Assembly (NCBI RefSeq): GCF_024223415.1
Contig: NZ_CP100500.1
DNA: 64,000 bases
Strand: one strand, 5' to 3'
DNA from: Escherichia coli
Lineage (GTDB): Bacteria > Pseudomonadota > Gammaproteobacteria > Enterobacterales > Enterobacteriaceae
Positions 28,297 to 64,000 of this stretch are shown here, one piece after another. The position numbers and the translations under genes were made by a program. The notes under the pieces are model-generated. The model ran no database searches. It was not told the DNA's origin and saw only the letters and a program-made list of their open reading frames with translations. Within the stretch, counting starts at the first letter, position 1. Every line of letters begins with the position of its first letter.

Positions 28297-28372
28297 GCCC
28301 GGATAGCTCAGTCGGTAGAGCAGGGGATTGAAAATCCCCGTGTCCTTGGTTCGATTCCGAGTCCGGGCACCA
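28297..28372 (+). tRNA. pheU: tRNA-Phe (anticodon GAA), pheU-type
   Basis: 76-nt cloverleaf GCCCGGATAGCTCAGTCGGTAGAGCAGGGGATTGAAAATCCCC...GGTTCGATTCCGAGTCCGGGCACCA with encoded CCA; sits where pheU lies relative to yjdC. Confidence 0.97.
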
Positions 28373-28381
28373 AATTCATAT

Positions 28382-28409
28382 AAACGGACCTCCACGGAGG
28401 TCCGTTTTT
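28382..28409 (+). terminator. Rho-independent terminator after tRNA-Phe
   Basis: aaacggacctcc-acgg-aggtccgttttt hairpin with T-run. Confidence 0.8.
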
Positions 28410-28569
28410 CGTTTCAGGACGCCACGATTTAAGCGTCCTGCCGCCAAATCAATTCTACCGAACTCAACCAGACTCCCCCCACATCAACCCCATTGTGTGG
28501 GTATAATTGCGGGTATACCCCAGTTCGACAGAATTTGTACCCTCTTTAACGCATTCAGAAGGCTGAACT

Positions 28570-29832
28570 ATGGCACTGACTGACGCAAAAATCCGGGCTG
28601 CAAAGCACACTGACAAGGCTTATAAACTCACTGACGGGGCTGGCATGTTCCTGCTGGTACATCCTAATGGTTCCCGTTACTGGCGTCTCCGTTATCGCAT
28701 TCTGGGTAAGGAGAAAACTCTGGCACTTGGTGTATACCCGGAGGTTTCTCTCTCCGAAGCTCGTACAAAACGGGATGAGGCCCGAAAACTGATTTCGGAG
28801 GGGATTGACCCTTGCGAACAGAAAAGAGCTAAAAAAGTAGTCCCTGATTTACAACTCTCTTTTGAACATATTGCACGACGCTGGCATGCCAGTAATAAAC
28901 AATGGGCACAATCACACAGCGATAAGGTACTCAAAAGCCTCGAAACACACGTTTTCCCCTTTATCGGCAACCGGAACATCACAACACTCAATACCCCGGA
29001 CCTGCTTATCCCTGTTCGTGCTGCAGAAGCTAAACAAATTTATGAAATCGCCAGTCGTCTGCAGCAAAGAATATCTGCTGTAATGCGTTATGCCGTACAG
29101 TCTGGCATCATCAGATATAATCCTGCTCTGGATATGGCTGGCGCATTGACTACGGTAAAACGCCAGCATCGCCCCGCTCTTGATCTTTCTCGCCTGCCTG
29201 AACTTTTGTCGCGTATTGGCAGTTACAAGGGGCAACCTGTCACCCAGCTTGCCGTTATGCTGAATTTACTGGTTTTTATTCGTTCCAGTGAACTCAGATA
29301 CGCCCGCTGGTCTGAAATTGATATTGACAATGCCATGTGGACTATTCCAGCCGAACGCGAACCCCTGCCAGGCGTAAAATTCTCACACCGGGGCTCCAAG
29401 ATGCGAACACCACATCTTGTGCCACTCAGCAAACAGGCTGTAGCCATACTGACAGAACTACAGACATGGGCTGGTGAAAATGGTCTGATCTTTACGGGAG
29501 CACATGACCCGCGTAAACCAATCAGTGAAAATACTGTAAATAAAGCCCTGAGGGTGATGGGGTATGACACAACCCAGGATGTCTGTGGCCATGGATTCCG
29601 GGCGATGGCGTGCAGTGCATTGATTGAATCAGGTTTGTGGTCCCGCGATGCTGTGGAACGTCAGATGAGCCATCAGGAGCGTAATGGTGTACGTGCTGCG
29701 TATATCCATAAAGCAGAACATCTGGAAGAACGTCGACTGATGCTACAGTGGTGGGCAGATTTTCTGGATGCGAACAGAGATAAGGGTATCAGCCCGTTTG
29801 AATATGCAAAGATTAACAATCCATTAAAATAG
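28570..29832 (+). CDS. int: P4-type tyrosine integrase (island integrase)
   Basis: 420 aa; N-terminal MALTDAKIRAAK...YWRLRYR typical of P4-like integrases; C-terminal catalytic region with R...HGFR...Y; first gene 3' of tRNA-Phe. Confidence 0.9.
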   Translation: MALTDAKIRAAKHTDKAYKLTDGAGMFLLVHPNGSRYWRLRYRILGKEKTLALGVYPEVSLSEARTKRDEARKLISEGIDPCEQKRAKKVVPDLQLSFEHIARRWHASNKQWAQSHSDKVLKSLETHVFPFIGNRNITTLNTPDLLIPVRAAEAKQIYEIASRLQQRISAVMRYAVQSGIIRYNPALDMAGALTTVKRQHRPALDLSRLPELLSRIGSYKGQPVTQLAVMLNLLVFIRSSELRYARWSEIDIDNAMWTIPAEREPLPGVKFSHRGSKMRTPHLVPLSKQAVAILTELQTWAGENGLIFTGAHDPRKPISENTVNKALRVMGYDTTQDVCGHGFRAMACSALIESGLWSRDAVERQMSHQERNGVRAAYIHKAEHLEERRLMLQWWADFLDANRDKGISPFEYAKINNPLK

Positions 29833-30097
29833 TAAGCAGTCCGGGCTGATTGCCCGGACTGCTTTAACTGATTATTTTTCTTTGTAAATGATGACGAAGA
29901 TTGATGTTCTGGCAAGTTACTCCGGCTTCCATTAAAGTCCCTTCGTCATGTTCTTCAGGCTATTTATGACTGTGATTAGCACCAGGAATATCTGGTTTCC
30001 ATGAGAGCAGGTAATAACCCCCGGTGTTTTCGGCTGTTCTGGTATCCTTGTCCAACACAGGCAGTCATTATAAACGGTAAAAAATGTGGATTTGCCC

Positions 30098-31003
30098 CTA
30101 TATTTCCAGACATCTGTTATCACTTAACCCATTACAGGCCCGCTGCCGCAGATATTCCCGTGGCGAGCGATAACCCAACGCACTATGCGGATGCCATTCG
30201 TTATAATGCTCGAACGCCTCTGCAAGGTTCTTTGCTGCCGTTAACCCGTCTGGTTTGGGCATGACACTGATGTAGTCACGCTTTATCGTTTTCACGAAGC
30301 TCTCTGCTATGCCGTTACTCTCCGGACTCCGCACCGCCGTGTTCTTCGGTTCAAGCCCCAACATCCGGGCAAACTGCCGTGTTTCATTAGCCCGGTAGCA
30401 TGAACCATTATCCGTCAGCCACTCTACTGGAGACGCCGGAAGCTCGTTGCCGAAGCGGCGTTCCACCGCTCCTGGCATGACGTCCTGTACTGTTTCACTG
30501 TTGAAGCCGCCCGTAGTGACCGCCCAGTGCAGTGCCTCACGGTCACAGCAGTCCAGCGCGAACGTGACTCGCAGTTTTTCTCCGTTATCACAGCGGAACT
30601 CGAACCCGTCAGAGCACCATCGCTGATTACTTTCTTTCACAGCCACTCTGCCGGTATGTGCCCGTTTCGATGGCGGTACAGCGGTTTTTCGCTCAAGCAA
30701 CAGCGCATTCTGGCGCATGATCCGGTAAATACGTTTGGCATTGATCGCAGGCATACCATCAAGTTCTGTTTGTCTGCGAAGCAGCGCCCATACCCGACAA
30801 TAACCATATGTGGGTAGCTCTCCGATAACATGGTGTATACGGCGAAGCACATCCGTATCATCCGTGTGACGGCTGCGGCGGCCGTCCTTCCAGTCATCGG
30901 CTCGTCTGAGAATGACGTGCAACTGCGCACGCGACACCCGGAGACAACGGCTGACGAAGCTTACTCCCCATCCCCGGGCAATAAGGGCGCGTGCGCTATC
31001 CAC
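30098..31003 (-). CDS. insD: IS2 transposase InsD (OrfB)
   Basis: 301 aa, near-identical to recalled IS2 InsD ([34 protein letters not shown]...). Confidence 0.92.
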
Positions 31004-31326
31004 TTTTTTGCTCGCCCATATTCAACGGCTTCTTTAAGGAGTTCATTTTCCATCGTTTTTTTGCCGAGCAGACGCTGGAGTTCTTTAATCTGCTTCATGG
31101 CGGCAGCAAGTTCAGAGGCAGGAACGACCTGTTCTCCGGCAGCCACAGCAGTAAGACTTCCCTCCTGGTATTGCTTACGCCAGAGAAATAGCTGGCTGGC
31201 TGCCACACCATGTTGCCGGGCAACAAGGGAGACCGTCATTCCCGGTTCAAAGCTCTGCTGAACGATAGCGATCTTTTCCTGTGTAGTACGCCGTCTGCGT
31301 TTCTCCGGCCCTAAGACATCAATCAT
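30961..31326 (-). CDS. insC: IS2 InsC (OrfA, HTH regulator)
   Basis: ORF trimmed to Met ([26 protein letters not shown]...), 121 aa; overlaps insD as expected for frameshift fusion. Confidence 0.9.
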
Positions 31327-31543
31327 CTGTTCTCCAATGACTAGTCTAAAAACTAGTATTAAGACTATCACTTATTTAAGTGATATTGGTTGTCTGGAGA
31401 TTCAGGGGGCCAGTCTAAAATGTATTCACTGTTATGAAATCAATAGTTCTGACGTACTGTTGAATGTGCTTGCGTTCTGAACCTTGTACAACCAGTACAT
31501 TTGATACCGAATTATAAACAAAACATTGCATCCAACTTTTTCA

Positions 31544-31619: not shown

Positions 31620-34600
31620 ATGGATGAAAATGCTTTAGGGTTTGCCTCATACTGGCGCAACTCGCTTGCGGATGCTGAGTCAGGAAAGGGCAGTTTTGAA
31701 CGGAAAGACGCCAAAAATTTCACTCATTGGCATGGGATAGCGGCGGGACGTCTTGACGAAGCGATTGTCAGTAAATTTTTTAAGGGAGAAAAAGACGATG
31801 TCGAAACGGTCGATGTCATCTTGCGCCCAAAAGTTTATTTCCGGTTACTGCAGCATGGTAAGGACCGTTCTGCAGGTGCGCCTGATATTGTTACCCCGAT
31901 AGTGACGCCAGCCTTGCTAAGCCGTGAGGGTTTTTTATATCCGACGCCAGCGACCTCCATTCCCAGAGACCTGCTTGAACCTTTGCCAAAAGGAGCATTT
32001 TCGATTGGTGAGATTGGGCAGTATGACAAATACAAGACGACCCATACCACGTTCTCTATCAACTTTGATGACAGCGTTGATAAGACTGCCGAAACGCATG
32101 AAGAACGGGAAGCACGATATGCCGCCTTGCAGCAGGAGTGGCGTCAATATCTGTATGACTCAGAGAGGCTACTGAAGAGCGTTGCCAGCGACTGGATTGA
32201 AAAACCTGAGCAATATGAACTCGCTGAGCACGGTTATATTGTTAAAACGGCGCAATCTGGCGGTGCCAGTTTCCATATCCTTTCTCTTTATGATCACCTG
32301 CTTGTTTGCAATAAGGATGTGCCGCTCTTCAATCGATTCGCCTCGCGAGAGGTTCATGCTGCAGAGTCTTTGCTGGCCCCTGGAGCAAAATTCAGCGACA
32401 GGCTTGGACACTCCGGAGATAAGTTTCCGCTGGCAAAGGCTCAGCGCGATGCCTTAAGCCATTTTCTGGATGCTAAACATGGCGATATCCTTGCTGTTAA
32501 TGGCCCTCCTGGAACCGGAAAAACCACGCTGGTGCTTTCTATCATCGCCACGCAGTGGGCCAGAGCGGCTCTCGAAAAATCTGAGCCTCCGGTTATTATC
32601 GCGACTTCAACGAATAACCAGGCTGTAACGAACATTATTGAGGCATTCGGGAAAGACTTTTCGCAAGGTTCAGGTGCGATGGCCGGGCGATGGTTGCCAG
32701 AGCTGAAAAGCTTCGGCGCTTATTTTCCCTCAAGCAGCCGTAAAGCTGAAGCAGCCAAAAAATATCAAACTGAAGATTTCTTCAACCAGGTTGAGTCAAA
32801 AGAGTATGTAGAAGATGCACTGCTGTTTTATCTGGAAAAGGCTAAGGCAGCCTTTCCTGAAAAAGAGTGTTCATCCCCTGAAAAGGTCATTGAACTCCTG
32901 CATGGTCAGTTGGCAGCAAAATCCGAGCAACTGATAAGACTGAACGCAACATGGCAAACGTTAAGCCAGATTCGGGCTGCGCGTGAGCTTATTGCTAATG
33001 ATATTGAGCAATATCTCAATAATTTAAATAAATTACTTTCCGGACAAGAACAAAAAATCACTCTACTGAAGAGTGCTAAAACGGAATGGAAAAAATATCG
33101 CGCCGGTGAATCACTGATCTATTCATTATTTTCCTGGCTTCCGGCGGTTCGCAGTAAGCGACAGTACCAAATACAGCTGTTTCTCGAAGATAAATTAGGT
33201 GCGCTGATTGCAGGAAATCAATGGTCTGATCCTGAAACTATCGAAAGTAATATTGATGGGCTGCTCAATTCCGCTGAGCGCGAGCAAACAACATACCGGC
33301 AGCAGATTGACTCCGCCCATGAAATCATTCTTAAAGAACAGCAGGCGGTTCAGGAGTGGCAGAGACTGGCTCTTGATTTAGGGTATGAGGGCGACGAGGA
33401 ACTGAGCTTCTCACAGGCCGATGAACTGGCTGATACGCAGATTCGCTTCCCTGCATTTTTACTGACGACTCACTACTGGGAAGGTCGTTGGCTGATGGAT
33501 ATGGCCAGCATTGATGATCTGCAGGAAGAGAAGAAGAAAAAAGGCGCTAAAGGGGTAACCGCCCGTTGGCAACGTCGAATGAAACTCACTCCATGTGTGG
33601 TGATGACATGCTATATGCTGCCCGGCAATATGCAGATAAGTGAGCACAAAGGACAGCGTAAATTCGAGAAAAGTTATTTGTATGATTTTGCCGATTTACT
33701 CATTGTCGATGAAGCCGGGCAGGTGCTTCCTGAAGTGGCTGCTGCCTCGTTTGCATTAGCTAAGAAGGCATTAGTGATTGGCGATACGGAGCAGATCCCG
33801 CCAATATGGAGTATTGCTCCTGCGATTGATATCGGTAACATGCTGGCGGAAAAAATTCTGTCTGGCAGTACGCAAGAAGAGATTACCGAGAAATATACGG
33901 CAATCGCAGACCTTGGTAAAAGTGCCGCATCTGGCAGCGTTATGAAAATAGCGCAGTTTGCTTCGCGCTATCAATATGATCCCGAACTGGCTCGTGGTAT
34001 GTACCTATATGAACACCGCCGGTGCTACGACAATATTATTGGATACTGTAATACGCTCTGCTATCACGGTAAGTTGTTGCCTAAAAGAGGGCGTGAAGAG
34101 AGCAATTTAATGCCCGCAATGGGGTATCTCCATATTGATGGTAAAGGAGAGCTGGCAAGTAGTGGAAGTCGATATAATTTGCTTGAGGCTGAAACGATAG
34201 CGGTCTGGTTGGCAGAGAACCAGCAAAATATTGAAGCGCATTACGGTAAATCGCTTCATGAAGTTGTCGGTATTGTGACGCCTTTTAGCGCTCAGGTATC
34301 CACTATCAAACAGGTGCTGGGCAAACAAGGTATCAGTACAGGCACGAATGAAAAGTCGCTCACAGTGGGCACCGTGCACTCTCTTCAGGGAGCGGAAAGA
34401 GCGATTGTGATATTCTCGCCAGTCTATTCAAAACATGAAGACGGCGGGTTTATTGATAGCGATAACAGCATGCTGAATGTTGCAGTCTCCCGTGCGAAGG
34501 ACAGTTTTCTGGTCTTCGGCGATATGGACCTGTTTGAGGTCCAGCCAGCCTCATCGCCACGGGGATTACTGGCAAAATACCTCTTTGAGTCAGAGAAGAA

Positions 34601-35135
34601 TGCGCTCTCTTTTGATTATAAAGAGCGTAAGGATTTAAAAACCGCCGGGACCAAAATCTACACACTTCATGGTGTGGAGCAACATGATAATTTCCTGAAT
34701 CAGACATTTGAAAATACCAGTAAACACATCACGATAGTTTCTCCATGGCTGACCTGGCAAAGGCTGGAGCAAACCGGTTTTCTTGATTCCATGATTGCGG
34801 CGTGTTCACGTGGAATTAACGTCACGATAGTCACTGACAGAAGCTACAACACTGAACATAATGATTTTGAGAAGCGAAAAGAGAAGCAGCAGAACTTTAA
34901 AGCGGCGCTGGAGAAACTGAATGCGCTGGGTATTGCTACAAAGCTGGTAAACCGTGTTCATAGCAAAATTGTTATTGGTGATGATGGTTTGCTGTGCGTG
35001 GGATCGTTCAACTGGTTTAGTGCGACACGGGAAGCGCGATATGAACGATACGATACATCAATGGTTTATTGCGGTGATAACCTGAAGGGTGAGATTGAGG
35101 CTATTTATAATAGTCTTGAGAGGCGGCAGGTTTAG
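31620..35135 (+). CDS. Superfamily-1 (Upf1/DNA2-like) helicase fused to C-terminal PLD-family (HKD) nuclease domain; candidate single-gene defence protein
   Basis: 1171 aa. Walker [10 protein letters not shown] (nt 32502-32528, aa 295-303); Walker B/motif II DEAGQ (nt 33708-33722, aa 697-701); SF1 motifs [18 protein letters not shown] and [16 protein letters not shown]; C-terminal HSKIVIGDD...GSFNWF = HxK(x4)D(x6)GSxN PLD signature (nt 34959-35030). About 290-aa N-terminal region and about 390-aa insert between Walker A and B have no motif I recognise. Confidence 0.75.
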
Positions 35136-35243: not shown

Positions 35244-36743
35244 TTATCTTCTGTCCGGAAGAATCAGAGGCTGTGGTTTCAGACTGTCTGCCGGTACATT
35301 CCTGTCTCCGTTAAAAACAATAACGGGTTCATTATCTTCGTCTGTCAGCGGATTGAATGGCGGTATATTTTCAGTACGAATGCCGGTCAGCCACTGAAAA
35401 ATACCTGCGAAATGACGGGCACTGATTTTTCTGCTGACGGACTGATGAGACGTGATGTCACTGGCGGTAATAATCAGGGGAACGCTGTAGCCTCCTTGTA
35501 TATGGCCATCATGATGAACAGGATTAGCACTGTCGCTGACCGACAGACCATGGTCAGAAAAGTAAAGCATGGCAAAATGACGGGAGTGCCGGCGAAGGAT
35601 ACCATCAAGCTGACCGAGAAAGTTATCCAGTTTACTGATGCTGGCGAGGTAACAGGCAATCTTTCGGGGATACTGCTCCAGGTAATGATTCGGCCAGGAG
35701 TTAAGTCGGTCACACGGATTCGGATGAGAGCCAATCATGTGCAGGAATATCACCTTCGGAGAGGATTTATCCGCCAGTGCACGTTCTGTTTCCTGTAACA
35801 ACAACATGTCATCCGTTTTACGGGAAGCAAAGCTGCCTTTCTTGAGGAAAACGGTATGCTCCGCATCAGAAGCAATAACAGAGATGCGTGTATCATGCTC
35901 CCCCAGTTTTCCCTGATTGGATATCCACCATGTGCTGTATCCTGCTTTTGCTGCCAGCGCCACCACGTTGTTGCCGGAGTCAGGGTTCTGCTCATAGTCA
36001 TAAATCAATGTCCGGCTCAGGGAAGGTACGGTACTGGCTGCTGCCGATGTATAGCCGTCAATAAATAAACCGGGAGCCGTATTCAGCCATGGTGTGGTTG
36101 GCACGGGATAGCCATATACCGACATATAATCCCTGCGCACACTCTCACCAGTAACGATAACAATCGTGTCATACAACGGTGTTCCCGGCAGGATTTTCCA
36201 GTTGTCAGCCCCGTGCTGACTCAGTTGTTTATAACGCTGCATTTCACGCAATGTGTCAGTTGTTCCCACAACAATTCCTTTAACCATCCGCAACGGCCAG
36301 CTGTTTACAGAGCATAATACGAACAGCAGCAGTGCCAGCCAGTTACGGTGACCGCGGTGGTGTGTCCGCCAGAAAATCACCATGAATACCAGAATCGCGG
36401 CACTGACCAGAAAATGATAAACAGGAATCATCCCGGTAAACTCTGCAGCCTCATCAGCCGTGGTCTGCAGCAACGCGACAATAAAACTGTTGTTGATTTT
36501 ACCGTACGTCATACCCGCAGGCGCATACAGTGCACAACAGAACAGAAATAACAGCGTTGTAATGGATGTGAGGGTATTTCTGTGTGCAAGGAGCAGAAGG
36601 AGAAACAGAAGCAGCACATTTCCTGTGGCATTCTTCTCAGTGTATCCGCATGCAATTGTGATTATCACAGAAATAACAAAAAAGAATAAAAACAATAAAA
36701 TCCGGGGTGTGTCGCCCGGACAAAACAGTTTTCTGATATTCAT
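35244..36743 (-). CDS. Sulfatase-family inner-membrane protein, probable phosphoethanolamine transferase (YhbX/YbiP/OpgE-like)
   Basis: 499 aa; N-terminal multi-TM region then periplasmic domain with alkaline-phosphatase-superfamily motifs (VTGESVRRDY, HMIGSHPNPCD, YFSDHG); AT-rich flanks. Confidence 0.6.
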   Translation of the reverse strand: MNIRKLFCPGDTPRILLFLFFFVISVIITIACGYTEKNATGNVLLLFLLLLLAHRNTLTSITTLLFLFCCALYAPAGMTYGKINNSFIVALLQTTADEAAEFTGMIPVYHFLVSAAILVFMVIFWRTHHRGHRNWLALLLFVLCSVNSWPLRMVKGIVVGTTDTLREMQRYKQLSQHGADNWKILPGTPLYDTIVIVTGESVRRDYMSVYGYPVPTTPWLNTAPGLFIDGYTSAAASTVPSLSRTLIYDYEQNPDSGNNVVALAAKAGYSTWWISNQGKLGEHDTRISVIASDAEHTVFLKKGSFASRKTDDMLLLQETERALADKSSPKVIFLHMIGSHPNPCDRLNSWPNHYLEQYPRKIACYLASISKLDNFLGQLDGILRRHSRHFAMLYFSDHGLSVSDSANPVHHDGHIQGGYSVPLIITASDITSHQSVSRKISARHFAGIFQWLTGIRTENIPPFNPLTDEDNEPVIVFNGDRNVPADSLKPQPLILPDRR

Positions 36744-36924: not shown

Positions 36925-37665
36925 TCAGAAGTTATAAGTCACACCAAGCATGATGTCATGACTTTTAACATCAACTTCTGACTTATATTTATCGCCCCAC
37001 TCGTCCTTGTAACTCACACTGCTGTCACCTGCATCAAGATAGCGATAGCTGAGGTCCAGAGCGATATCCGGGGTTACGTCATAGCGGACACCCGCGCCAA
37101 GGTTCCATGCGAAGTTGTCAGCAGAGCCTGAACGTGACAACGATTCGCGACCACTGCTTCCGTACTCATAATCCCAGGTACTGATACCGGTTGTTTTCTG
37201 GTGAATTCTGGCGTAGCCAATCCCTGCAGATATCCAAGGTGTGAATGCGCTGTCATTCCGGAAGTCATAGTACGCATTCAGCATTAGTGTGTTGACTGAC
37301 ACCTCATTCTTCAGGTCATCACGCCAGTAACCACCTGACCAACTGTCTTTATCTACGTTATACTTCGAATCAGCTTTTCCACGAGCGTAAAACTCCAGTT
37401 CTGTACGAACCGGAATACTGAACTGCGGATAAAAATCATAACCAGCCGCGATACCACCACTGAATACCGTATCATGGTCATCGCCGCCTTTATACTTTGA
37501 CGTTTCTTCCTCATCTCCTGACAGGAAACGCTGGTCTGAAAGTGACACCACAGAGGTACCGGCTTTACCGGTCAGATAAAAACCGCTTTTACCTTCCTCA
37601 GCACCTGCATTTGCTGCAAATACACAGGCTGCGGCCACCACTGAAACAGCAAAAACCTTTTTCAT
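36925..37665 (-). CDS. Outer-membrane beta-barrel protein, MipA/OmpV-like
   Basis: 246 aa; signal peptide MKKVFAVSVVAAACVFAANA, alternating amphipathic strands, C-terminal ...GVTYNF with terminal Phe; resembles MipA family but unverified. Confidence 0.5.
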   Translation of the reverse strand: MKKVFAVSVVAAACVFAANAGAEEGKSGFYLTGKAGTSVVSLSDQRFLSGDEEETSKYKGGDDHDTVFSGGIAAGYDFYPQFSIPVRTELEFYARGKADSKYNVDKDSWSGGYWRDDLKNEVSVNTLMLNAYYDFRNDSAFTPWISAGIGYARIHQKTTGISTWDYEYGSSGRESLSRSGSADNFAWNLGAGVRYDVTPDIALDLSYRYLDAGDSSVSYKDEWGDKYKSEVDVKSHDIMLGVTYNF

Positions 37666-38152: not shown

Positions 38153-38524
38153 TTATGCCGCTTCTTTTTCTGGATTCAGATAAACTGCCTGAATGAGTTC
38201 CCAGTCACGCAACTGTTTGCTCCAGCGCTCAGGATGACGCTTGCGAGCTTCGCGATAAACTTTTTTTCTGGCTTCCAGTATTTGTGCATCAATTCCGCGA
38301 TGGCGTTCATCCGGAGTAACATACTTAATACCGCTGTGCTTGTGTTCCAGGTTGTACCATTGCGTGAACTTGCTTAACCAACTTCTGGCTTCATCTATGG
38401 TTCGAAAACCATTCTCCGGCCACCATGAACAATACTTAATCGTCCGGAAGAGCGATTCGGAATAAAGAAGTGTTACTGGCAGTTCTTTCATCGCATCAGT
38501 GAAAACCAGCAGGGCACTGCTCAC
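38153..38524 (-). pseudogene. Transposase C-terminal fragment (DDE integrase core, IS3/IS481-like)
   Basis: 123-aa ORF with ...WYNLEHKHSGIKYVTPDERHRG... typical of transposase C-termini; lacks N-terminal domain. Confidence 0.45.
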
Positions 38525-38942
38525 CAGAGCAACACAGGAAAGTGAACCCGAACAAAAGTTCCTGTACCATTTTCTCCCAGCAGACGTGAGGCTTGTTCCA
38601 GTGACTCTGGTATACGTCCCAGCCGGACATCAAGTGCGCCGATGGCTATTGCCTGAAATCGCATCGTACAGCAAATCACCAACAGGACACCGACAGACAT
38701 TAAAGGTAACCCCCTGTAATCCAGTAGTTCCGACAGCCAGCGGTCATTTAGGGAGTCAGAAAACCAATCGCCAGAATCGTGCCCGGAAAGGCATAACCCA
38801 GCGACGCCACTCTCATCACACCGCGCCTGAACAGTGGCATAGCGTTGAGGAATTCCGGGCATTCCAGACTACGAGCAGACTGACAAAAATTACGACAAAG
38901 CGTTGAAGGAAGCCAGCGCGCGGACTGACAGGACTTTACCAT
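38521..38942 (-). pseudogene. ABC-transporter permease fragment (ThiP/FbpB-like), frameshifted
   Basis: Two overlapping short ORFs containing permease-like segments LGYAFPGTILAIGFLTP and ...IPESLEQASRLLGENGTGTFVRVHFPVL; far too short for an intact permease. Confidence 0.35.
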
Positions 38943-41603: not shown

Positions 41604-41649
41604 CTGAACAGAGGTGATATGCTCACCTCAGAACAAGACTGGTGCCCTA

Positions 41650-42350
<701 letters not shown>

Positions 42351-42356
42351 CTAGCT

Positions 42357-42393
<37 letters not shown>

Positions 42394-45117: not shown

Positions 45118-45123
45118 GGTTCC

Positions 45124-50558: not shown

Positions 50559-50773
50559 CTACCTCAGTTTTGCAAGCACTGATTCTGGTTTTGGATTGTT
50601 GCTTACATCTATCCGGCATCAGGAAAACCTGTGCCCAAATAGGGAATCCACACACAATCGCCTCTACAACTGGACGACCTCTGAGGCCAGTACAAAAATC
50701 AGGTTCCGATTGTGCAGGTGCAACCCGTCACCATTTCTCAGTACGCTGCAACTTTTGCTGAAAGAGATTAACT

Positions 50774-52380: not shown

Positions 52381-52639
52381 CTATTCCGCGCAGCTATTTA
52401 GTTCCGCTATCGTTCTGCACATACAAGCTCTTAACTCGTTTATGCATCCTCAAGGCTCAGCAGAATAGCTGTCAGCGCCAATGATATAAGACAGTAATGG
52501 GGATGCGGACGATTTCCTGGACTCTCAGGAGATGAAACATGTTTACTGAAGAAGAAAAAATCCGCGCCATTGAGCTTTATTTCAAATATGTGACCCGTCC
52601 TGAATAGCGTTGACACGTTCCTACTTAAATCCGGAGAAC

Positions 52640-53870: not shown

Positions 53871-53876
53871 TAGTCA

Positions 53877-54493
53877 ATGGTAAGAAGCTGGCTCCCGTCG
53901 TACGCGAACTGGGCTACCCTTCGAAAAGAAATCTGCGGCGTTGGATCCGTTCATAGGAATCAGGTGGCGGAGCAAAAGAATCCATTCGCCATAAGCCCCG
54001 TTACACAGATGAGCAAAAACAAGTTGCCGTTGAACATTATCTTAACCACGGCTGCTGCCTAGCGTTTACCAGTAGAACTCTGGGTTATCCCTGTACCGAT
54101 GTGCTCGCTCGCTGGGTTAATGAACGTTACCCCGGCAGACGACGTATATTTACCAGTAAGACCAGTCCGGTTGCGCCCTTTGAACCAGAAGTCAAACGTC
54201 AGGCTGTCATGGCATTCTGTACACGACAAATATCAGCCAGTGAAATCTCTAGGCGTATTGGTGTCAGTCGTGCGGTATTGTATAAATGGAAAGATGAAAT
54301 TATCGGCAACAGTGCTTACCAGACTATGCGTAAACATAACGAACCTTCCCTGGAGGCAGAACGCGATGCGTTGCGGGAGGAAGTCGCCCGACTGAATCAG
54401 GAAATACGCCGCCGGCAGATGGAACTGGATATTCTGAAAAAAGCGGAGGAAATCATAAAAAATCTATGGTCACCCCCGTTTTTGCTACACTGA
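53877..54493 (+). pseudogene. IS3-family orfA (HTH + leucine-zipper), one internal stop, truncated at slippery site
   Basis: ...VAPFEPEVKRQAVMAFCTRQISASEISRRIGVSRAVLYKWKDEI...EVARLNQEIRRRQMELDILKKAEEII then non-IS sequence. Confidence 0.6.
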
Positions 54494-54895
54494 TTTTTGA
54501 TTAATGGTGGGCTTGCTTAAATCTATCCGGCGTCTCTGTGGACAAGGAGACCCGCGCCTCGATGAGTTCCGCACCTGATAATCCTAAAAAGACCCTCGGC
54601 TTCAGTGAGCCATTTTTTCTGTCAGGTTTTTAATCAGGTCTATTTGCCGTTCATGTCATCAATAATCAGTCTTCGCAAAACCAGACAGGTAACTTGTATC
54701 TTATTTTTTAAAATAAGCTAATTGAGTTTTGTCAGTATCTATATCAGGCCTGATATTCTTTGTGCAGAGCAGTGATTGCCCAGGCTATTCGGGCCAGTTT
54801 ATTTGCCAGAGCGCAGGCGACAATATTTGAATGCTTATTGTCGAGTTGCTTTTGAACCCATTCAGCAACTCTGCCCTATTGATGCTCCAGCCGCA

Positions 54896-55740
54896 TCATG
54901 AACGAGCGGGCGTACAGAACAAGTAACCGACTCGTTTGCTGATCCCCAGCAGCATTGATTTACCACCGGTACTGTATTGTCGGGGAACAAGTCCTGTGGA
55001 TGCTGCAAAATCCCTACTGCACGAAAATTGTTTACCATCACCAAGCTGGGATGATAGCAGGCTGGCCGTCATCGGCCCAACACCGGGGATTGTCATGATT
55101 CGTTGCACAGTAGCGTCAGCTTTGATTGACTGGTTTAACTCTGATTCCAGTTCTGTTATTTGCTCAATACGATAAAGATAGTGAGCATGTAATTTCATCA
55201 GCAAGCGACTCAGATATTCAGGTATTTCGTGTTCAGCTAACGCCAGAGACAACCATTTTATTGCGGCATCCCCTGTCGGCAGTCTGATTCCAAATTCCAG
55301 CAAGAAACCGTGGATCTGGTTGGTTTTTTTCACCTTATCTCTGATGAGCGATTCTCTGACCCGGTGTAATGCCCTCATTGCCTGCTGGGTTTCTGTTCTG
55401 GGCTGGACAAAACGCATTGATGGTCGTGAAGCCGCTTTGCATATGGCTTCTGCATCAATAAAATCATTCTTATTACCTTTGACAAACGGACGCACGAATT
55501 ACGGAGAGATAAGTTTTTCTTCATGACCGATGTCGCTGATACGCCGGGCCATAAAATGCGTACCAGCGCAGGCTTCCATAACAACTACTGAGGATGGACA
55601 TGTTGCCAGAAACTGCATCAGCTTCGTACGCGTAAACTTTTTACGCAAAAGCGCATTGCCAGATTTATCTTGACAATGAATATGGAAAGAATGTTTACCG
55701 AGATCGATACCAATAAGCGCAACGTTTTACATGATGGTGC
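54896..55740 (-). pseudogene. IS110-family transposase (N-terminal and central parts), frameshifted and 3'-truncated; inserted between orfA and orfB of an IS3-family element
   Basis: 199-aa ORF with ...MTIPGVGPMTASLLSSQLGDGKQFSCSRDFAASTGLVPRQYSTGGKSMLLGISKR... plus upstream N-terminal piece in another frame. Confidence 0.6.
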
Positions 55741-55780
55741 CCTCTAAAATAACCCACCCTGTCAGCGTACCGCTCACAGG

Positions 55781-56689
55781 GTGGGGGTGACCATCTCATT
55801 AGACCCGGGCATCAGTATCAGTCACCTAAACAACAGAGAAAAAACAAATATCGCTGATGCCCTGAGACAAACATATCCCCTGACAGAATTACTGCATGTT
55901 CTGGGCCTTGCCCGTAGCAGTTATTTTTATCACCGGGCTGCACTGAAAGCCGGTGATAAATACGCCACGATACGTACGATGCTGACAGATATAGTTAACA
56001 GTAATTACCAGTGTTATGGCTATCGTCGCCTGCATGCGATGCTCAGGCATGAGGGGGTCAGCTATCAGAAAAGGTTGTAAGCAGACTTATGGTGAAGGAA
56101 CAGCTTGTCGTCAGCCGTAACCGTCGTCGCCGCTACAGCTCATATTGCGGAGAAATCGGACCGGATCCGGATAACCTTATCGCCAGAGATTTTAAGGAGG
56201 ACCAACCTAATCAGAAATGGCTGACAGATATAACGGAGTTCCAGCTTCCTGCAGGAAAAGTCTGGCTGTCACAGGTGGTGGACTGCTTCGATGGAAAAGT
56301 TGTGAGCTGGTCTCTCAGTACACGCCCCGACGCAGAACTGGTTAACGCTATGCTGGATAACGCTGTCAAAACGTTAAATGCTGGCGAACGACCGATGATA
56401 CACAGTGGCAGAGGTGGGCATTATCGCTGGCCAGGCTGGCTGGCTGGAAAGAGTTAATGCCGCAGGTCTTATTCACTCAATGTCCCGTAAGGATGATGCC
56501 GCATGCGAAGGCTTTTTCGGCAGACTGAAAACGGAAATGTATTATGGGCGTAAATGGTCGGGCATCATGCCGGAAAAGTTCATGCAGCATGTGGATGCTT
56601 ACATCAGAGGGTATAACGAGCGGCGTATAAAATTATCGCTGGGTGAAGACAGCCCTGAAATGTACCGCCAACAATGTAGGCTGGCATAA
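55781..56689 (+). pseudogene. IS3-family orfB split into three frames
   Basis: ORFs 55781-56080, 56089-56457, 56405-56689 together give a DDE transposase (...WLTDITEF..., ...SMSRKDDAACEGFFGRLKTEMYYGRKW..., ...YIRGYNERRIKLSLGEDSPEMYRQQ). Confidence 0.65.
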
Positions 56690-57279
56690 TAAAGAAGTCC
56701 AGGAAATCGTCCGCATCCCCAAAACGGCCAATAATCTTGGCGTTGACATAGCACGACGATCTCTTGAAACTACCGCGCCGATAGTTATTCCCCAATCAAG
56801 CAACAGTCCCCTGATTTGACAAACGGTCACATTAACAATATGCTGCCTTGCCCGGTGCAAAGCGTAGATATCCTGTTGTTCCGAGCTTTTTGGAGGCATG
56901 AACAGCATTGTCGGTTACATCAGAAGCACTGCGATGGCCTGTGCATCATTACCGTCATTTTTTGCCCACAGACAAAGGGAGTTACATACTGTGGGTTGAG
57001 GACCTTTACGTTATGCCCCAGTTTTTTAAATTCACTCTGCCAGTAAAATTCCCATGTGGATGCCCTACATCAATTAGGAAGGCCGGAATATTCGCCACTA
57101 TTTGGAGTAATTCTTTTCGGCCAATACGTTTTGAATAAACCGGATTACCGACCTAATTTAACCCGCAGAGCTGAAAGATATTTTTATCCAGATCAACACC
57201 CAGGAATACGATATTCATTGTGATTCCCCTGCTGAGTGAGTGCATTTCGTACAGTTAACCGCAGAAGGAGGGGGTACTC

Positions 57280-57980
57280 CATTCCATGAACTGGAAGCCC
57301 AGATACGATGCATAGAGTCACCTGATATTAAAAAGAACGAGGATCTTGAGGACGAGAACCGACGTCCAAAACAGATGCTTGCCGACCTTAGCCTAGAGAA
57401 CCGGCATTGAAAGACATTATCGAAAAAAGCTTTAAAACCAGCCTGTAAGCGTGAGCTTGTTACTCATCAGATAACGACATTTGGACTCAGTGTCCATCAG
57501 GCCTGCCGGAGTCTGAACCAGAGCAGAACGGTTTCCCATTACCGTCCGGATACCACGTGGTACGACCCCGTTATTGTGGTGGTGCAGGCAGTGGACGAGC
57601 GATATCCTCGATACGGTTTTTCAAAACTTTTTCAGGTTCTGAGGCAGCAGGTTCGCGGCAAATCGCAGTTATCCGGTCATGCTGCGCATAGATAATGGTT
57701 CGGAATTTATCTCTCTAACGCTGGCTGAATGGGCTGATATACACGCAGTAAAACGGGAGTTTATCCAGCCGGGTAAGCTGACGTAGAACGCTTTTATTGG
57801 GCGTTTTAACAGGACACACCGTACAGAAATACTCGATTTTTATCTGTTCAGAACGCTGAATGAAGTTCTAGAAATTACGGAGAAATGGTTATCAGAATAT
57901 AGCTATGAACGCACACATGAATCACTGAACAATAAGACGCTGGAAGAATATCGACGACACCATTATTTGACCAAGATATA
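57280..57980 (+). pseudogene. IS3-family transposase remnants (heavily degraded)
   Basis: Fragments ...LTLAEWADIHAVKREFIQPGKLT.NAFIGRFNRTHRTEILDFYLFRTLNEVLEITEKWLSEYSYERTHESLNNKTLEEY... across several frames. Confidence 0.5.
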
Positions 57981-58140
57981 AAAATGCATGGAATTAAAAC
58001 GGGGCATATTTATATATGAATAACACAACTATATCGCTAAGGTAAAGGTGTATCCAAACGGAAAATACAGCACTAACAGCATATATTCATCCAAATTAAT
58101 AAAATATGACCGAGAACATAGAATATTAAACATTTTTAAA

Positions 58141-59400
58141 TTATGCTTTTCTCGCTAACGCTTCTATATCCGAAAAATACTCTTTAATTCCCTCTAGGAT
58201 AGATTCTGCCACTTGTTGTTGGAATCTTGCCGTTTTCAGTTTGCGCTCTTCCTCAACGTTACTGATAAACGCCGTTTCGACCAGAATGGAGGGAATATCA
58301 GGTGCTTTCAGCACGGCAAACCCGGCCTGTTCAACCTGATTTTTATGCAGCTTGTTGATTTTACCGAGCTTATTCAGCACCGCTTTACCCAACTTCAGGC
58401 TGTCGGCAATGGTCAGAGACTGCACCATATCGAACATGGTGTGGTCGACATAGCGGTCACCGCTTTTGCTCACGCCGCCAATCAAGTCCGAGGCGTTCTG
58501 GGTTTGTGCCAGATATTTTGCCGCAGTACTTGTCGCGCCTTTGGTCGAAAGCGCAAACACGGAAGAACCGCTCGGCTGGCGACTGGTAAAGGCATCAGCA
58601 TGGATAGAAACAAAAAGGTCAGCACGTTGTTTCTGTGCTTTTGCTACACGCACTTGCAACGGAATGAAGATGTCTTCATTGCGCGTCATGTACACCTTCA
58701 TATTACCCTCTTTTTCGATCAGAGAGCGCAGACGGCGAGCTATTTGCAATACCACGTCTTTTTCGCGTGTTTTGTATTTCCCCACCGCACCGGGGTCTTC
58801 GCCACCGTGGCCGGGGTCAAGCATAATGACAATCGGACGATCACGCCCTGCTTTACCCGGTTGTGGACCACTTTGTGCTGGCGGCACCTGCTTTTCGAGG
58901 TCGCCTTTGTTGTAATCCTCCAGCAGCGCCAGCAGCGGGTCCTGCATATCCTGTGCATTGGCCGGATAGAGGTCCATCACCAGACGCTCTTTAAACCCGG
59001 CGACCGGCGCAAGGGCAAACAGCTGCGGTTTTACGTTTTGCTTTAATTCAAAAACCATGCGTACGGTTTGCGGGTCAAATTGCCCGACGCGCGCCGACTT
59101 GATGAACGGGTCGTCTGCACGAATTTGTGCCGCCATCCCCTTGAGTACCGAGTTCAGGTTTACATCTTCGATATCCACCACCACACGTTCAGGGTTACTT
59201 AACGCGAACTGCTTATATTGCAGCTGACGATTTGATTCTACCGTCACGCGGGTGTAGCTGGACGCAGGCCAGACGCGTACCGCCACGACCTGGCTGACCG
59301 CAGCCAGGCTGACCTGACTTACGCTCAATAGCCACATGGCGCCCGCACCTTGCAGTAAACGACGACGGCTGATTACATAATTATAGTTAGATACCAGCAT
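58141..59400 (-). CDS. amiC: AmiC-family N-acetylmuramoyl-L-alanine amidase (Tat signal, AMIN domain, Amidase_3 domain)
   Basis: 419 aa; twin-arginine motif [24 protein letters not shown]; catalytic-domain segments [18 protein letters not shown] and SIHADAF; close to recalled AmiC but N-terminal residues differ; ATG at 59398-59400. Confidence 0.75.
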
Positions 59401-60054: not shown

Positions 60055-60265
<211 letters not shown>

Positions 60266-61342
60266 TCAAGCAGTTATCGGGGTGCTGTTGATCTGCCTGT
60301 TTTGATTACGCAGTAATGTATAAACTTCGTGTGAGATATAGCGCTTCAGGCTGCGTATTGTTTCCATTTTTGTATGCCCTTCCGCTACTCGTCTGGCGAC
60401 ATATTCCTTCGTTTTATCGTCAGTTCGCAAACGTCCGATGGAAATGATGTGAAGTGCACTATTTGCAGCACGATCTCCACCCCGGTTAAGTCGATAACGA
60501 TTCGTTTTTCCTGAAGATACGGGAACAGGGCTGACACCACACAGTGCCGCAAAACCTGATTCTGATCTTAATCGTTGGGGATTGTCTCCGGCAGTGATCA
60601 GCAACTGTGAAGCGCTTTCGTATCCAATAGCATTACGTTTAATCAGTGCAGGTGCCAGCTCATCCACAATTGCCGCAATCATAACATCCAAATCAGCGAT
60701 TTCGTCATGTAACTCGAGATAGCGTCGGGCAAGGGACTTTAATGAAATACGATAAACGTTGGTAACATTGAGCTATTCACTGGCATCAGGCCGCCAGGAT
60801 CTCAGAGTCCTGATGAGCTGCATGCGCGTCATATTTCTGAGCTGTTCACGTAATTCATCCGGGGCAGAGATAATATTGGAATGGTTAATCTGGAGAGCGA
60901 CTCAGCGGGCTGATATTGCTGTTTTTCGGCAAGTTTTTAATACCCGCAGAGACTCAATCATACCATTGCGCGTTTTGGGTGTGACAGTTCTTATTCCGGA
61001 GCATGCGGCGTGAGCGGCACATTCAGCATCAATCGTGTCACTTTTACCCCGTTTGCGTCGCTCCATCCGATCTGGCACAGCCACCTCAAGAACTTCTAAC
61101 CCGGCATTCTGTAAATAGCGAAGCAGACCTGATCCATAGGTGCCTGTACACTCAACACCAATTCGCTTTAATGCCCCAAACGAAGCCATCCATGCCAGCA
61201 TCTGCCGGTAACCTTGCCGTGTTGTGGAGAAAAACGGGGTCCCCAGAACTTTATTGTTCTGATCTACGACAGCGGCAACGTGCAGATCTTTATGTATATC
61301 CACGCCACCCACAACAGCGGTTTCCGTAACTTTACCTGCCAT
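60266..61342 (-). pseudogene. IS110-family transposase in two pieces (frameshift in 60692-60901)
   Basis: N-terminal ORF 60902-61342 (MAGKVTETAVVGGVDIHKDLHVAAVV...) and C-terminal ORF 60266-60691 (...LCGVSPVPVSSGKTNRYRLNRGGDRAANSALH...). Confidence 0.6.
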
Positions 61343-62010
61343 AACAGAGCTCCTGTGAGGAAACAGAGTTGAATCTCCAGACAGATAACCCGGACAGGAC
61401 AGTAACGAGACAAGCCGTCAGGCCCTTCTTGAGTCACGCGCATCGGTGAGGAGACGCCTCGCATGAAGGCGTTTCCGACATCCTCTCTGTTCATCGGCAG
61501 ATAGCCTATTTCATCCAGGATCAACACCCGGGCATAACTCAGTTGCTGTAGCTGACGCTCCAGCCGGTTTTCCTGTTTCGCTTTCATCAGTGTCGCGATC
61601 AGTCTGTCCAGTGGCATAAACAGTACCCGATGTCCCGCATCCACCGCTTTCACGCCAAGAGCTATGGCCAGATGAGTTTTTCCGACACCAGGAGGTCCCA
61701 GCAGGATCACGTTTTCGCTGCGCTCCACGAACGCCAGACCAGCCAGTTCCCGGACAACCTTACGGTAGATGCCCGGCTGGAAGGTAAAGTCGAACTGCTC
61801 CAGCGTTTTGACCCACGGCAGACGAGCCTGCTTCAGCCTGGACTCCATACCGCGCTGATGCCTGCCGTTCCATTCCTGCTGTAGCGCCATGCACAGGAAC
61901 TCCCGGTAGTTCAGCTCTTTTTTAGCTGCCTGTTCCAGCAGGCTTTCAACGTGATAACTCAGATGCTCCATTTTCAGGCGACTCAGCAGGACTTCCAGCT
62001 CATGCATCAC
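61264..62010 (-). pseudogene. istB: IS100 (IS21 family) IstB ATP-binding helper, C-terminus replaced after DEIGYLPMNRE
   Basis: N-terminal 170 aa match recalled IS100 IstB incl. Walker A GPPGVGKTH; downstream sequence unrelated, coinciding with the adjacent IS110-family element. Confidence 0.7.
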
Positions 62011-63179
62011 AACAGCTCCTCATAGGCACTCAGTAGTCGATGTTCCACCTGACTGACCTGCTGCCAGAGCGGGGTGTGATGCTCCGGCACTGTCTGCCAG
62101 CCAGACGATGCCGAACAGAGGCGATGTGAGGCCACCAGTTTCTCATTACTGTAGATCCGCAACTCGTCATCCAGCGATATTCGTATCGATACCGGCTGAC
62201 CACACAGCGCTTCGGGAACGCTGTAACGATTACCACCAACCTCGATATAGCTGTCCCAGGACACATGGCGGATGTCAAAGTAACTGGTATCGAAGTCCGT
62301 ATCCGGTAACGGCTGCAGATATTCCTGCTCCAGCGCGAAGCGCTGTTCCGGCGTTTCTTTGAACTGACGAAGCTCCCGTTTGTCAGCCACATCGGCTATC
62401 CATTGCTCCAGTTGTTGATTGACATGAGTGAAGCTGTCGAACCTGCGGTACCGGACGAAGAAGTTCTCCTTGAGGTATTTCACCATCCGCTCAACCTTAC
62501 CTTTTGTTCTGGCCCTGCGTGGACGGCATGCCCGTGGCAGGAAGTTATAGTGGTCAGCCAGCAACAGAAATCCGGAGTTGAACACGACTTTCCCGTTGTT
62601 ATTCTTCAGCACCGCAGCCTTCTGGTTATCAACCAGCACCGTTTTCACACAACCACCGAAGTAGCGGAAGGCGCGAACCAGTGATTCGTAGGTATTCTCA
62701 GCATCCTGTTTTGGGGCAGCGAAGACATGAAAGCGGCGGGAGAACCCCAGCGCATTAACCGCAAAGTTAACTTTGCACGGTTGCCCGGCAACTTCCACCT
62801 CAACTTCGCCCCAGTCGTGCTGGAGCTGGTATCCAGGCTGAGTTTCGAAGCGAACTGTTCTTTTTGACGGACGCATTTTACGTTTGGGCTGGATGTAGTA
62901 ACGCAGCATGGAACGTCCGCCCGTATAGCCCATTGCCTTAATCTCCGCGAAGATAACCGCGCTATTCCAGACATTCTCTGCCAGGCGCATGTCGATGTAA
63001 TCCATAAACGGTTTCAGCTTAACCATTTTGTGGCGGGTCCTTCTGGCTGGCGGTTCAGGGTATTTGAGGTAGCGTCTGACCGTTCGTTCAGAGCAACCAA
63101 TCTGAGTCACAATATCGACAATGTACGCGCCCTGCTGGCGCATTTGCTTTATCATGTAAAAGTCCTCTCTGCTCAGCAT
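62007..63179 (-). CDS. istA: IS100 (IS21 family) transposase IstA
   Basis: 390 aa MLSREDFYMIKQMRQQGAYIVDI...; near-identical to recalled IS100 IstA. Confidence 0.9.
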   Translation of the reverse strand: MLSREDFYMIKQMRQQGAYIVDIVTQIGCSERTVRRYLKYPEPPARRTRHKMVKLKPFMDYIDMRLAENVWNSAVIFAEIKAMGYTGGRSMLRYYIQPKRKMRPSKRTVRFETQPGYQLQHDWGEVEVEVAGQPCKVNFAVNALGFSRRFHVFAAPKQDAENTYESLVRAFRYFGGCVKTVLVDNQKAAVLKNNNGKVVFNSGFLLLADHYNFLPRACRPRRARTKGKVERMVKYLKENFFVRYRRFDSFTHVNQQLEQWIADVADKRELRQFKETPEQRFALEQEYLQPLPDTDFDTSYFDIRHVSWDSYIEVGGNRYSVPEALCGQPVSIRISLDDELRIYSNEKLVASHRLCSASSGWQTVPEHHTPLWQQVSQVEHRLLSAYEELL

Positions 63180-63226
63180 GTTGATGTCCTTTCTGGTGTG
63201 AGAACCTTAAGGAAACAACATGTTGG

Positions 63227-63565
63227 GTGGAGCGGACAATCCAAATGGTGAATTACCGTCTTATATCACTGGCGCTGACAGGCTTTAACGGCCTGTCCTC
63301 AAAAGTTCAGAACGTCCTGAAGGATGACCCGTTCTCCGGGCATATCTTCGTCTTCCGGGGCCGCAGTGGCAAAATGGTGAAAATACTGTGGGCCGATCGT
63401 GATGGGTTATGCCTGTTCGCCAAACGCCTGGAACGGGGCCGCTTCATCTGGCCGGTGACCCGGGAAGGGAAAGTGCACCTGACGCCAGCTCAGTTATCCA
63501 TGCTACTGGAGGGGATCGCGTGGCAACATCCCAAACGGACAGAACGGCCTGGCATCCGGATATAA
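63227..63565 (+). pseudogene. IS66-family TnpB (orf2), probably 5'-truncated by IS100
   Basis: ...FNGLSSKVQNVLKDDPFSGHIFVFRGRSGKMVKILWADRDGLCLFAKRLERGRFIWP... matches IS66 TnpB core; N-terminal residues do not. Confidence 0.65.
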
Positions 63566-63584
63566 CCCGTTGCAAAGCGAGTAT

Positions 63585-64000
63585 ATGGACACCTCACTTG
63601 CTCATGAGAATCCCCGCCTGCGGGCACTGTTGCAGACGCAACAGGACACCATCCGCCAGATGGCTGAATACAACCGCCTGCTCTCACAGAGGGTGGCGGC
63701 TTATGCTTCTGAAATCAACCGGCTGAAGGCGCTGGTTGCGAAACTGCAACGTATGCATTTCGGTAAAAGCTCAGAAAAACTTCGCGCAAAAACCGAACGA
63801 CAGATACAGGAAGCACAGGAGAGAATCAGCACACTTCAGGAAGAAATGGCGGAAACGCTGGGTGAGCAATATGACCCGGTACTGCCATCCGCCGCCCTGC
63901 GTCAGTCTTCAGCCTGTAAACAGTTACCGGCCTCACTTCCCCGTGAAACCCGGGTTATCCGGCCAGAAGAGGAATGCTGTCCTGCCTGTGGTGGTGAACT
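63585..64000 (+). CDS. IS66-family transposase TnpC, 5' part (runs off window)
   Basis: MDTSLAHENPRLRALLQTQQDTIRQMAEYNRL...leucine-zipper-like N-terminus then CPACGGE zinc-finger start, typical of IS66 transposase; ORF open to window end. Confidence 0.75.
   Translation, partial: MDTSLAHENPRLRALLQTQQDTIRQMAEYNRLLSQRVAAYASEINRLKALVAKLQRMHFGKSSEKLRAKTERQIQEAQERISTLQEEMAETLGEQYDPVLPSAALRQSSACKQLPASLPRETRVIRPEEECCPACGGE

Follow-up and report, generated by a model that had tools for sequence, protein, structure and literature searches.

The proximal 35.6 kb of a probable composite GI-pheV/pheU genomic island at the pheU tRNA-Phe gene of Escherichia coli

We analyzed a 64,000-nt stretch of Escherichia coli DNA (assembly GCF_024223415.1, contig NZ_CP100500.1), referred to below as the window, whose right-hand part carries a genomic island that starts at a tRNA gene. 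This gene, a tRNA-Phe (GAA), is the only tRNA that ARAGORN finds in the window. On its left the gene order is rsgA ... frdABCD, ampC, efp, groSL, aspA, dcuA, cutA, dsbD, yjdC (dicD) and the tRNA, and because this flank runs to dsbD-yjdC we identify the locus as pheU. The 28 kb left of the tRNA are 100% identical and colinear in strains SCU-316, O78 strain 3, NCTC10444, KV7 and other complete E. coli genomes. On its right lie an integrase gene and the first set of cargo genes, which together we call module 1 (28373 to about 37683). The features of the junction and of this module are as follows, with insertion sequence abbreviated as IS and attachment site as att.

28297..28372, plus strand: tRNA-Phe (GAA), pheU copy (ARAGORN and Rfam)
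28350-28372, plus strand: attL/attB core, the last 23 nt of tRNA-Phe
28382..28407, plus strand: terminator-like hairpin just 3' of the tRNA, on the island side of the junction, present also in genomes whose site is unoccupied
28570..29832, plus strand: P4-type tyrosine integrase, full-length open reading frame (ORF) of 420 aa (Pfam Arm-DNA-bind_3, Phage_int_M and Phage_integrase)
30087..31417, minus strand: IS2, intact, 1,331 bp, in the int-mkoC spacer (TnpA and TnpB above cut-offs; inverted-repeat ends)
31620..35135, plus strand: mkoC, Mokosh type II, 1,171 aa (PADLOC MkoC, E = 0, 1693 bits, full length)
35244..36743, minus strand: phosphoethanolamine transferase, CptA/EptA-like, 499 aa (Pfam Sulfatase and EptA_B_N)
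36925..37665, minus strand: small beta-barrel outer-membrane protein, 246 aa, the last gene of module 1 (Pfam OMP_b-brl)

A preliminary description of this DNA had placed a P4-type integrase within 200 bp of the tRNA, and we measure its start at 197 nt downstream. The protein aligns with phage P4 Int at 54.4% identity across 97% of its length (E = 3e-150), and its translation displays the motifs HGFR and AAYIH (HxxR and the tyrosine, respectively), while its score against the NCBIfam model PRK09692 is 246 bits, under that model's cut-off of 434. The integrase is intact and P4-type, and it may be active at tRNA-Phe. A scan for promoters and terminators around int and IS2 was uninformative except for the hairpin that follows the tRNA.

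To determine how often pheU is occupied, we searched a collection of 5,426 complete E. coli genomes with the unoccupied junction of NCTC10444. In NCTC10444, a 160-nt integrase remnant separates pheU from cadC-cadB-cadA. This arrangement, yjdC-pheU-remnant-cadC without an insertion, is found in 3,678 of the 5,426 genomes (68%), and the strains with an empty site include NCTC10444, SCU-316 and KV7, each of which has a left flank 100% identical to that of the window. Integrases of the same family adjoin yjdC-pheU in 1,307 genomes and yqgA-pheV in 2,950. The preliminary description had called the region an integrase-marked island at tRNA-Phe and had named a gene order universal downstream of pheU as the observation that would make it core instead; the survey bears out the island and finds no such universal order. 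The same description had core synteny stopping exactly at the tRNA end. This holds insofar as the DNA is foreign from the tRNA onward, but similarity to the empty-site genomes continues for 114 nt beyond the tRNA, to 28486 (NCTC10444), because part of a related element has been left behind at the “empty” sites.

These results leave practically no chance that the region consists of ordinary Escherichia DNA, core or ancestral, which happens to lie beside a tRNA gene. The GC content of the island is 48.2%, near the 51.5% of the core, and two of its genes, iha and amiC, have E. coli-like GC, as would be expected of core DNA. However, the survey refutes this reading, since the region is missing from most complete genomes, including strains with identical flanks. 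Moreover, the same DNA is found at pheV, at pheU or at ynjA depending on the strain, direct repeats bound the element in strain E41 (described next), an integrase gene stands at its start and defunct conjugation genes lie inside it.

The closest full-length counterpart of the island is found in E41, a pig isolate, at the other tRNA-Phe gene (pheV; NZ_CP069707.1, 803,731-894,050). Window positions 28249-64000 align to the E41 chromosome as one piece, and from 28297 to 64000 the window is colinear with the E41 pheV island and is separated from it by 14 substitutions and 4 indels. Both copies share the IS2 insertion and all of the IS fragments. The flanks differ: in E41 the island adjoins yqgA-speC, whereas in the window it adjoins yjdC, and colinearity begins at the tRNA, which is identical to the pheV of E41. 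The E41 island spans 90.3 kb between perfect 23-nt repeats, of which the 23-mer of the tRNA-Phe end is duplicated exactly as an attR beside yghD, and the window corresponds to its first 35.6 kb. Beyond this point, the E41 island contains IS66 and IS100 debris, ibrAB, a group II intron, sodC, sitABCD and iucABCD-iutA, and its distal part also has a YadA-like adhesin gene and a yee/cbtA end module.

Using NCTC10444 as a stand-in for the lineage of the window, we compared the divergence of the island with that of the core. E41 and NCTC10444 are 1.6% apart in the core DNA adjoining pheU, whereas the island copies differ by about 0.04%. The island is thus approximately 40-fold less diverged than the core, which points to recent horizontal spread, and we conclude that it has apparently spread recently between lineages and between two identical tRNA-Phe genes. 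The pheU side of E41 itself (locus L010, 1-16000) is occupied by a different island with SrfABC-like, vWA and tellurite-resistance-domain genes; this island ends at an IS1A by yjdJ, and cadC through ghoS are missing from the stretch that we viewed.

Given the near-perfect match to an island located at pheV, we considered whether the island was acquired there and was later moved beside dsbD-yjdC by an inversion spanning oriC, through recombination between the identical and inverted pheU and pheV genes with additional homology from an integrase remnant. The two tRNA-Phe loci lie in opposite orientations in E41, and the closest core relatives of the window keep a tRNA and an integrase remnant at pheU that could have supplied the homology. 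However, we found no genome near the lineage of the window with the composite at pheV: among complete genomes, only E41 and Br_112_kylling (Br_112) cover at least 80% of window 26000-50000. In addition, the same modules are genuinely located at pheU in several unrelated genomes; in Br_112 the DNA beyond the island is pheU-side core (phn genes), and in HCM-27C-1 an attR-like repeat closes an island of about 101 kb whose start is at pheU. Lastly, P4-type integrases are on record as using alternative tRNA-Phe sites (PMC7545054). We therefore regard an inversion from pheV as very improbable.

To the right of module 1, the island continues to the end of the window with the features below. Coordinates of the IS elements were transferred from the 99.9%-identical E41 annotation, and the ORFs were checked against NCBIfam.

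38153..38896, minus strand: IS3-family transposase tail and iron ABC-transporter permease fragment, junction debris (NCBIfam and E41 annotation)
38992..40971, minus strand: PhoX alkaline phosphatase, 659 aa, with a weak twin-arginine (Tat) signal match (Pfam PhoX, 1e-165)
41614..43151, plus strand: IS3-family fragment (41614-42341) and ISL3 fragment (42770-43151), the breakpoints relative to strain L26
43307..43757, minus strand: SgcJ/EcaC-family gene, frameshifted by two 1-nt deletions relative to E41, with no ORF on this strand
43989..46490, minus strand: IS3 fragment, then dead conjugative-element genes (TIGR03755 in two pieces, TIGR03756 and TIGR03757)
47425..49512, minus strand: iha, TonB-dependent siderophore receptor/adhesin, intact, 695 aa (NCBIfam PRK13486, 1538 bits, above cut-off)
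50463..57997: IS graveyard, with IS3, IS110 and unclassified transposase pseudogenes around an IS630-family gene
51266-52297, minus strand: IS630-family transposase gene, intact, in the IS graveyard
57434-57576, minus strand: isrN small RNA match (Rfam), in the IS graveyard
58141..59400, minus strand: amiC, a second, island-borne copy, 419 aa, intact (NCBIfam AmiC, 792 bits, above cut-off)
59401-60100: 700-nt stretch of 27% GC, directly upstream of the island amiC
60106..64000: IS3 fragment, IS110 pseudogene, IS21-family element and IS66 tnpB/tnpC fragments, the IS66 running off the window
62007-63179: istA of the IS21-family element, intact, with istB truncated

Comparison with other strains shows that parts of this island circulate separately. 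In the first example, strain L26 carries module 1 and the adjoining PhoX segment at pheU, where colinearity with the window stops at 42769 and different cargo follows; everything from 43928 rightward is found instead at ynjA, where it lies in an island headed by a different integrase. In a second example, the pheU island of HCM-27C-1 opens with another integrase and sugar-utilisation genes, meets the window sequence at 38456, remains colinear with it up to the window end and runs on to sit, iuc, yee and parDE. It ends at the attR-like repeat TTTCATTCCGAGTCCGGGCACCA, and directly after this repeat stands a second, 96%-identical copy of module 1. These tandem units are direct evidence for tandem accretion at pheU, with module 1 as a discrete islet. 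The second mkoC islet of HCM-27C-1 is in turn followed by an integrase fragment and dptF, a gene of phosphorothioation-dependent restriction (L009, 12044-14001), which makes the locus an array of defence cargo. The place where the HCM-27C-1 copy of module 1 stops matching, near 37683, defines the right edge of this module, and the stretch from 37684 to 38456, between module 1 and the PhoX segment, consists of the IS3-family tail and ABC-permease fragment.

Three further genomes share the start of the island at pheU. Br_112_kylling has the same composite with extra copies of ISVsa5, and a draft genome (GCA_052459205.1) has the composite colinear with window 21620-45133 at 99.75% identity. AR_0085 shares, by annotation, at least pheU-int-IS2-mkoC-ept. 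The whole arrangement at pheU is not reproduced by any complete genome in the collection.

Two of these strains illustrate how an island of this type can lose its far end. In Br_112_kylling, a deletion runs from just after iha into a truncated yjdN/phnC, so that cadC through yjdM are gone (L002, 26404-27044); the missing cadCBA through yjdM amount to about 40 kb of core genes. In AR_0085, the island breaks after the transferase gene at a copy of ISVsa5 and is joined to the idn/leuX region (L011, 9119-10991). Both strains are rich in this IS10-like element. It is conceivable that the same happened in the source genome of the window, that is, an IS-mediated deletion or rearrangement took the distal part of the island, perhaps together with cadCBA and neighbouring core genes, and left no attR. 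The dense IS copies in the island, including the intact IS2, IS630 and IS21-family istA, would be in keeping with such an event. However, ISVsa5, the element tied to both known truncations, is not present in the window, and the window is colinear up to base 64000 with the full-length islands of E41, L26 and HCM-27C-1.

The closest relative that we found argues in the same direction. An exact match to the window's IstA allele identified a draft contig, UDHK01000023.1 (GCA_900482235.1), which has one mismatch to window 52007-64000, carries the variants of the window relative to E41 and is likewise colinear with the window to its last base. In the stretch that we read, this contig remains colinear with E41 over at least 9.2 kb past base 64000, through IS66, IS100 and ibrAB, and its coordinates suggest that it reaches about 39.7 kb past the window end. 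Attempts to walk along the contig with IucA and a 155-aa transposase fragment did not return it, as both probes are too widespread, and none of the loci that they did return is as near to the window as locus L014. Similarly, the exact CadC protein of NCTC10444, used as a probe for the far junction, returned only unoccupied sites because this allele is too common. The preliminary description had offered two alternatives, an island longer than 35.6 kb or one whose distal end was lost. Of these, the longer island is the better supported, since the E41 island measures 90.3 kb and has an attR and UDHK01000023.1 goes on past 64000. Loss has the two precedents above. Judging from these relatives, continuation past the window is clearly more likely, and we consider a truncated island in the source genome unlikely.

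Based on these data, we propose with good confidence that 28373-64000 corresponds to the proximal part (35.6 kb) of a large composite island of the GI-pheV/pheU type, inserted at pheU by a P4-type integrase and built by tandem accretion and IS-mediated fusion. The position and parts of the island, its absence from close relatives, its near-identity to the E41 pheV island and its modular distribution are directly observed; these observations suggest insertion by the integrase at pheU, an order of accretion and a continuation to a full-length attR in the source genome. In the mechanism we envisage, the P4-type tyrosine integrase would recombine the attP of the element with the last ~23 nt of the tRNA-Phe gene (attB). 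Since pheU and pheV are identical, either could serve as the target, and pheU would have been used in the source genome. The island would not be a single acquisition; rather, smaller tRNA-Phe islands and a conjugative element would have been stacked in tandem, after which IS insertions and IS-mediated deletions would have erased internal att sites and integrases and fused the pieces. The first piece would be an “integrase-only” defence islet (int, mkoC, the phosphoethanolamine transferase and the outer-membrane protein), the second a PhoX/ABC-transporter remnant, the third a dead conjugative-element fragment with iha, and the fourth the IS graveyard with a captured copy of amiC. By comparison with relatives, ibrAB, sodC, sitABCD, iucABCD-iutA and the yee/cbtA end module would probably come next, and an attR repeat would be expected at the far end, before cadC.

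Several findings weigh against this interpretation. As the preliminary description had noted, the window holds no second copy of the tRNA 3' end: searches with the att queries (TTCGATTCCGAGTCCGGGCACCA and the 19-nt core ATTCCGAGTCCGGGCACCA) found none for the 23-mer or the 19-mer at up to 3 mismatches, nor for a 14-mer at up to 1 mismatch. The window thus has no attR, and the far boundary in the source genome is not seen; the same 23-mer, 19-mer and 14-mer searches found in the window none of the internal or degenerate att remnants that would prove tandem accretion. No repeat marks the right boundary of module 1 in HCM-27C-1 either, and a scan of the island for self-repeats gave one weak IS3-related pair and no repeat that marks a boundary. 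The conjugation genes are dead and would not account for the transfer of a 90 kb element between lineages. Finally, the GC deviation of the island is small and its composition only mildly atypical, with individual modules ranging from 27% to 57%.

Module 1 contains the first cargo gene of the island, mkoC. The MkoC alignment covers residues 1-1169 against profile positions 1-1135 of 1136 (PADLOC), and the Pfam domains of the product are AAA_11, AAA_12, PLDc_2 and PLDc (active-site motif). On these domains, mkoC encodes an SF1 (Upf1-like) helicase joined to a PLD nuclease at the C-terminus and is predicted to be an anti-phage protein. The IS2 upstream of it has a 5-bp target duplication (AAATG), occupies the identical site in E41 and AR_0085 and is missing from L26, Br_112 and HCM-27C-1; the insertion appears to be recent (“fresh”). 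It lies 254 nt past the integrase stop codon and is oriented against both neighbouring genes. Expression of mkoC is uncertain because IS2 lies 202 nt upstream of its start codon, where it could sever mkoC from its native promoter or supply a new one. We also asked whether the phosphoethanolamine transferase belongs to the MCR family and rejected this assignment, as every NCBIfam match is far under its cut-off.

The trio of mkoC, transferase and outer-membrane protein genes is found in 625 genomes, and many more lack mkoC but have the transferase, either alone or together with the outer-membrane protein gene. The transferase gene recurs 3' of P4-type integrases at pheU and pheV, and an integrase with a transferase pseudogene or fragment is found at leuX and ynjA (window 35244-37665; L011, 16258-20631; L005, 7998-9655). 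The integrase-proximal gene of these islets is variable, and in the window it is mkoC. This suggests a conserved islet backbone with a variable slot next to the integrase.

Two bolder readings, that the whole 90 kb block moved between pheV and pheU although more than one third of it is dead IS DNA and it has no working conjugation genes, or that the int-[slot]-transferase backbone is a dedicated defence slot, are tentative and in our view rather doubtful. What puts block movement at issue is that the cores of the two lineages are 1.6% apart with only ~0.04% substitutions in the island. If the block did move, the P4-type integrase would still excise and integrate the whole composite and some helper element would transfer it; if the slot reading is right, an int-[slot]-transferase-(outer-membrane protein) backbone would carry defence genes such as mkoC.

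The PhoX segment extends from 38456 to about 43866 and comprises PhoX, the IS3 and ISL3 fragments and the SgcJ/EcaC gene. This last gene is intact in E41 and frameshifted in the window, with the deletions at 43492 and 43755; the frameshifts may represent true decay or homopolymer sequencing errors. Within the IS3-family fragment, 604 nt (41738-42341) are repeated at 99.8% identity about 33 kb further on in the E41 island (L004, 38113-38716). From the orientations of the loci the second copy would be inverted, and the pair may be able to drive inversions; the repeat also coincides with the inferred start of the draft contig UDHK01000023.1. To the right of this segment, the conjugation set is incomplete, with three genes left, all of them truncated or split and annotated as pseudogenes in E41. 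The virulence or fitness cargo present in the window consists of the intact iha, which has zero nucleotide differences from the E41 gene named Iha by RefSeq, and mkoC as a defence gene.

The IS load of the island is heavier than first described. The preliminary description had counted at least eight IS copies or fragments, an underestimate: we find about 19 transposase genes or fragments of the IS3 (including the intact IS2), ISL3, IS630, IS110, IS21 and IS66 families, and by the sum of the transferred coordinates transposase-derived DNA accounts for about 13 kb, or 37%, of the 35.6 kb of island sequence in the window. The isrN match in the IS graveyard is a full-length Rfam match to an Hfq-binding small RNA (138 bits against a gathering score of 44) and falls within an IS3-family “integrase core” pseudogene. 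A reading of the amiC gene near the right end as the core gene, with the large rearrangement that this would entail, was rejected: the gene is an extra copy among IS fragments, about 95% identical in nucleotide sequence to the core amiC, and the island arrangement occurs in 57 of the 5,426 genomes. In our judgement, this divergence is larger than would be expected within E. coli. The AT-rich stretch upstream of it (59401-60100) has no ORF of at least 80 aa and no match to an Rfam family.

Our analysis goes beyond the preliminary description in three respects: the island is composed of fused modules that circulate separately, another lineage carries it at pheV and its first cargo gene is Mokosh type II. 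For annotation, an “AAA domain protein” becomes a Mokosh type II gene and an “amiC” becomes an island-borne extra copy, and beyond annotation these changes have little significance. What looks like one long “island” is several separately circulating modules fused by IS activity, and pheU and pheV alike are found with the same composite. In strain typing, the region ties the source genome to poultry-, pig- and human-associated E. coli with an iha/ibrAB/sit/aerobactin island, and the analysis predicts the content beyond the window.

We compared the island with systems known from E. coli, beginning with module 1. “Integrase-only” islets that carry defence genes sit at E. coli tRNA hotspots (PMC10121019). 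Module 1 is like these in having an integrase followed by a single-gene defence system and no further mobility genes; it differs in being fused to a large virulence island and in adding a transferase/outer-membrane protein pair of unassigned role. In PMC13276650, Mokosh is listed among nuclease-based defence systems and the type II system is credited to Millman et al. 2022. The window MkoC matches the type II profile over its full length, and its anti-phage role is a prediction.

As described in PMC11537424, GI-pheV islands are mosaics of modules flanked by IS elements, and of their genes intP4 alone is conserved; they are bounded by 19-23-nt repeats and carry ibr, yee and aerobactin modules. 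The window island shares with this family, and with the PAI-...-pheV and -pheU islands of PMC7545054, the insertion at the tRNA-Phe 3' end, the adjoining intP4 and the mosaic of IS-flanked modules, while the iha, ibr, aerobactin and yee modules and the 19-23 nt repeats are seen in its colinear relatives and E41. It differs from GI-pheV in its location at pheU, and its combination of an mkoC islet, PhoX, a dead conjugative fragment with iha, and an IS graveyard with amiC is not among the island types described in the parts of PMC11537424 that were consulted. The sites pheU, pheV and selC are alternatives for aerobactin islands and for LEE (locus of enterocyte effacement) islands (PMC7545054). 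According to the same source, the pheU island of strain ED1a (PAI-ED1a-pheU, 44 kb) carries Iha and aerobactin, and SHI-2 and SHI-3 carry aerobactin, so that iron-uptake cargo is shared with the window island, although those islands are much smaller, the likeness is one of description and the aerobactin genes of the window island would lie beyond 64000. The SHI-3 and ED1a islands are also located at pheU, like the island described here. The window island is of this ordinary and well-known kind of E. coli genomic island, and almost certainly it runs on well past the window.

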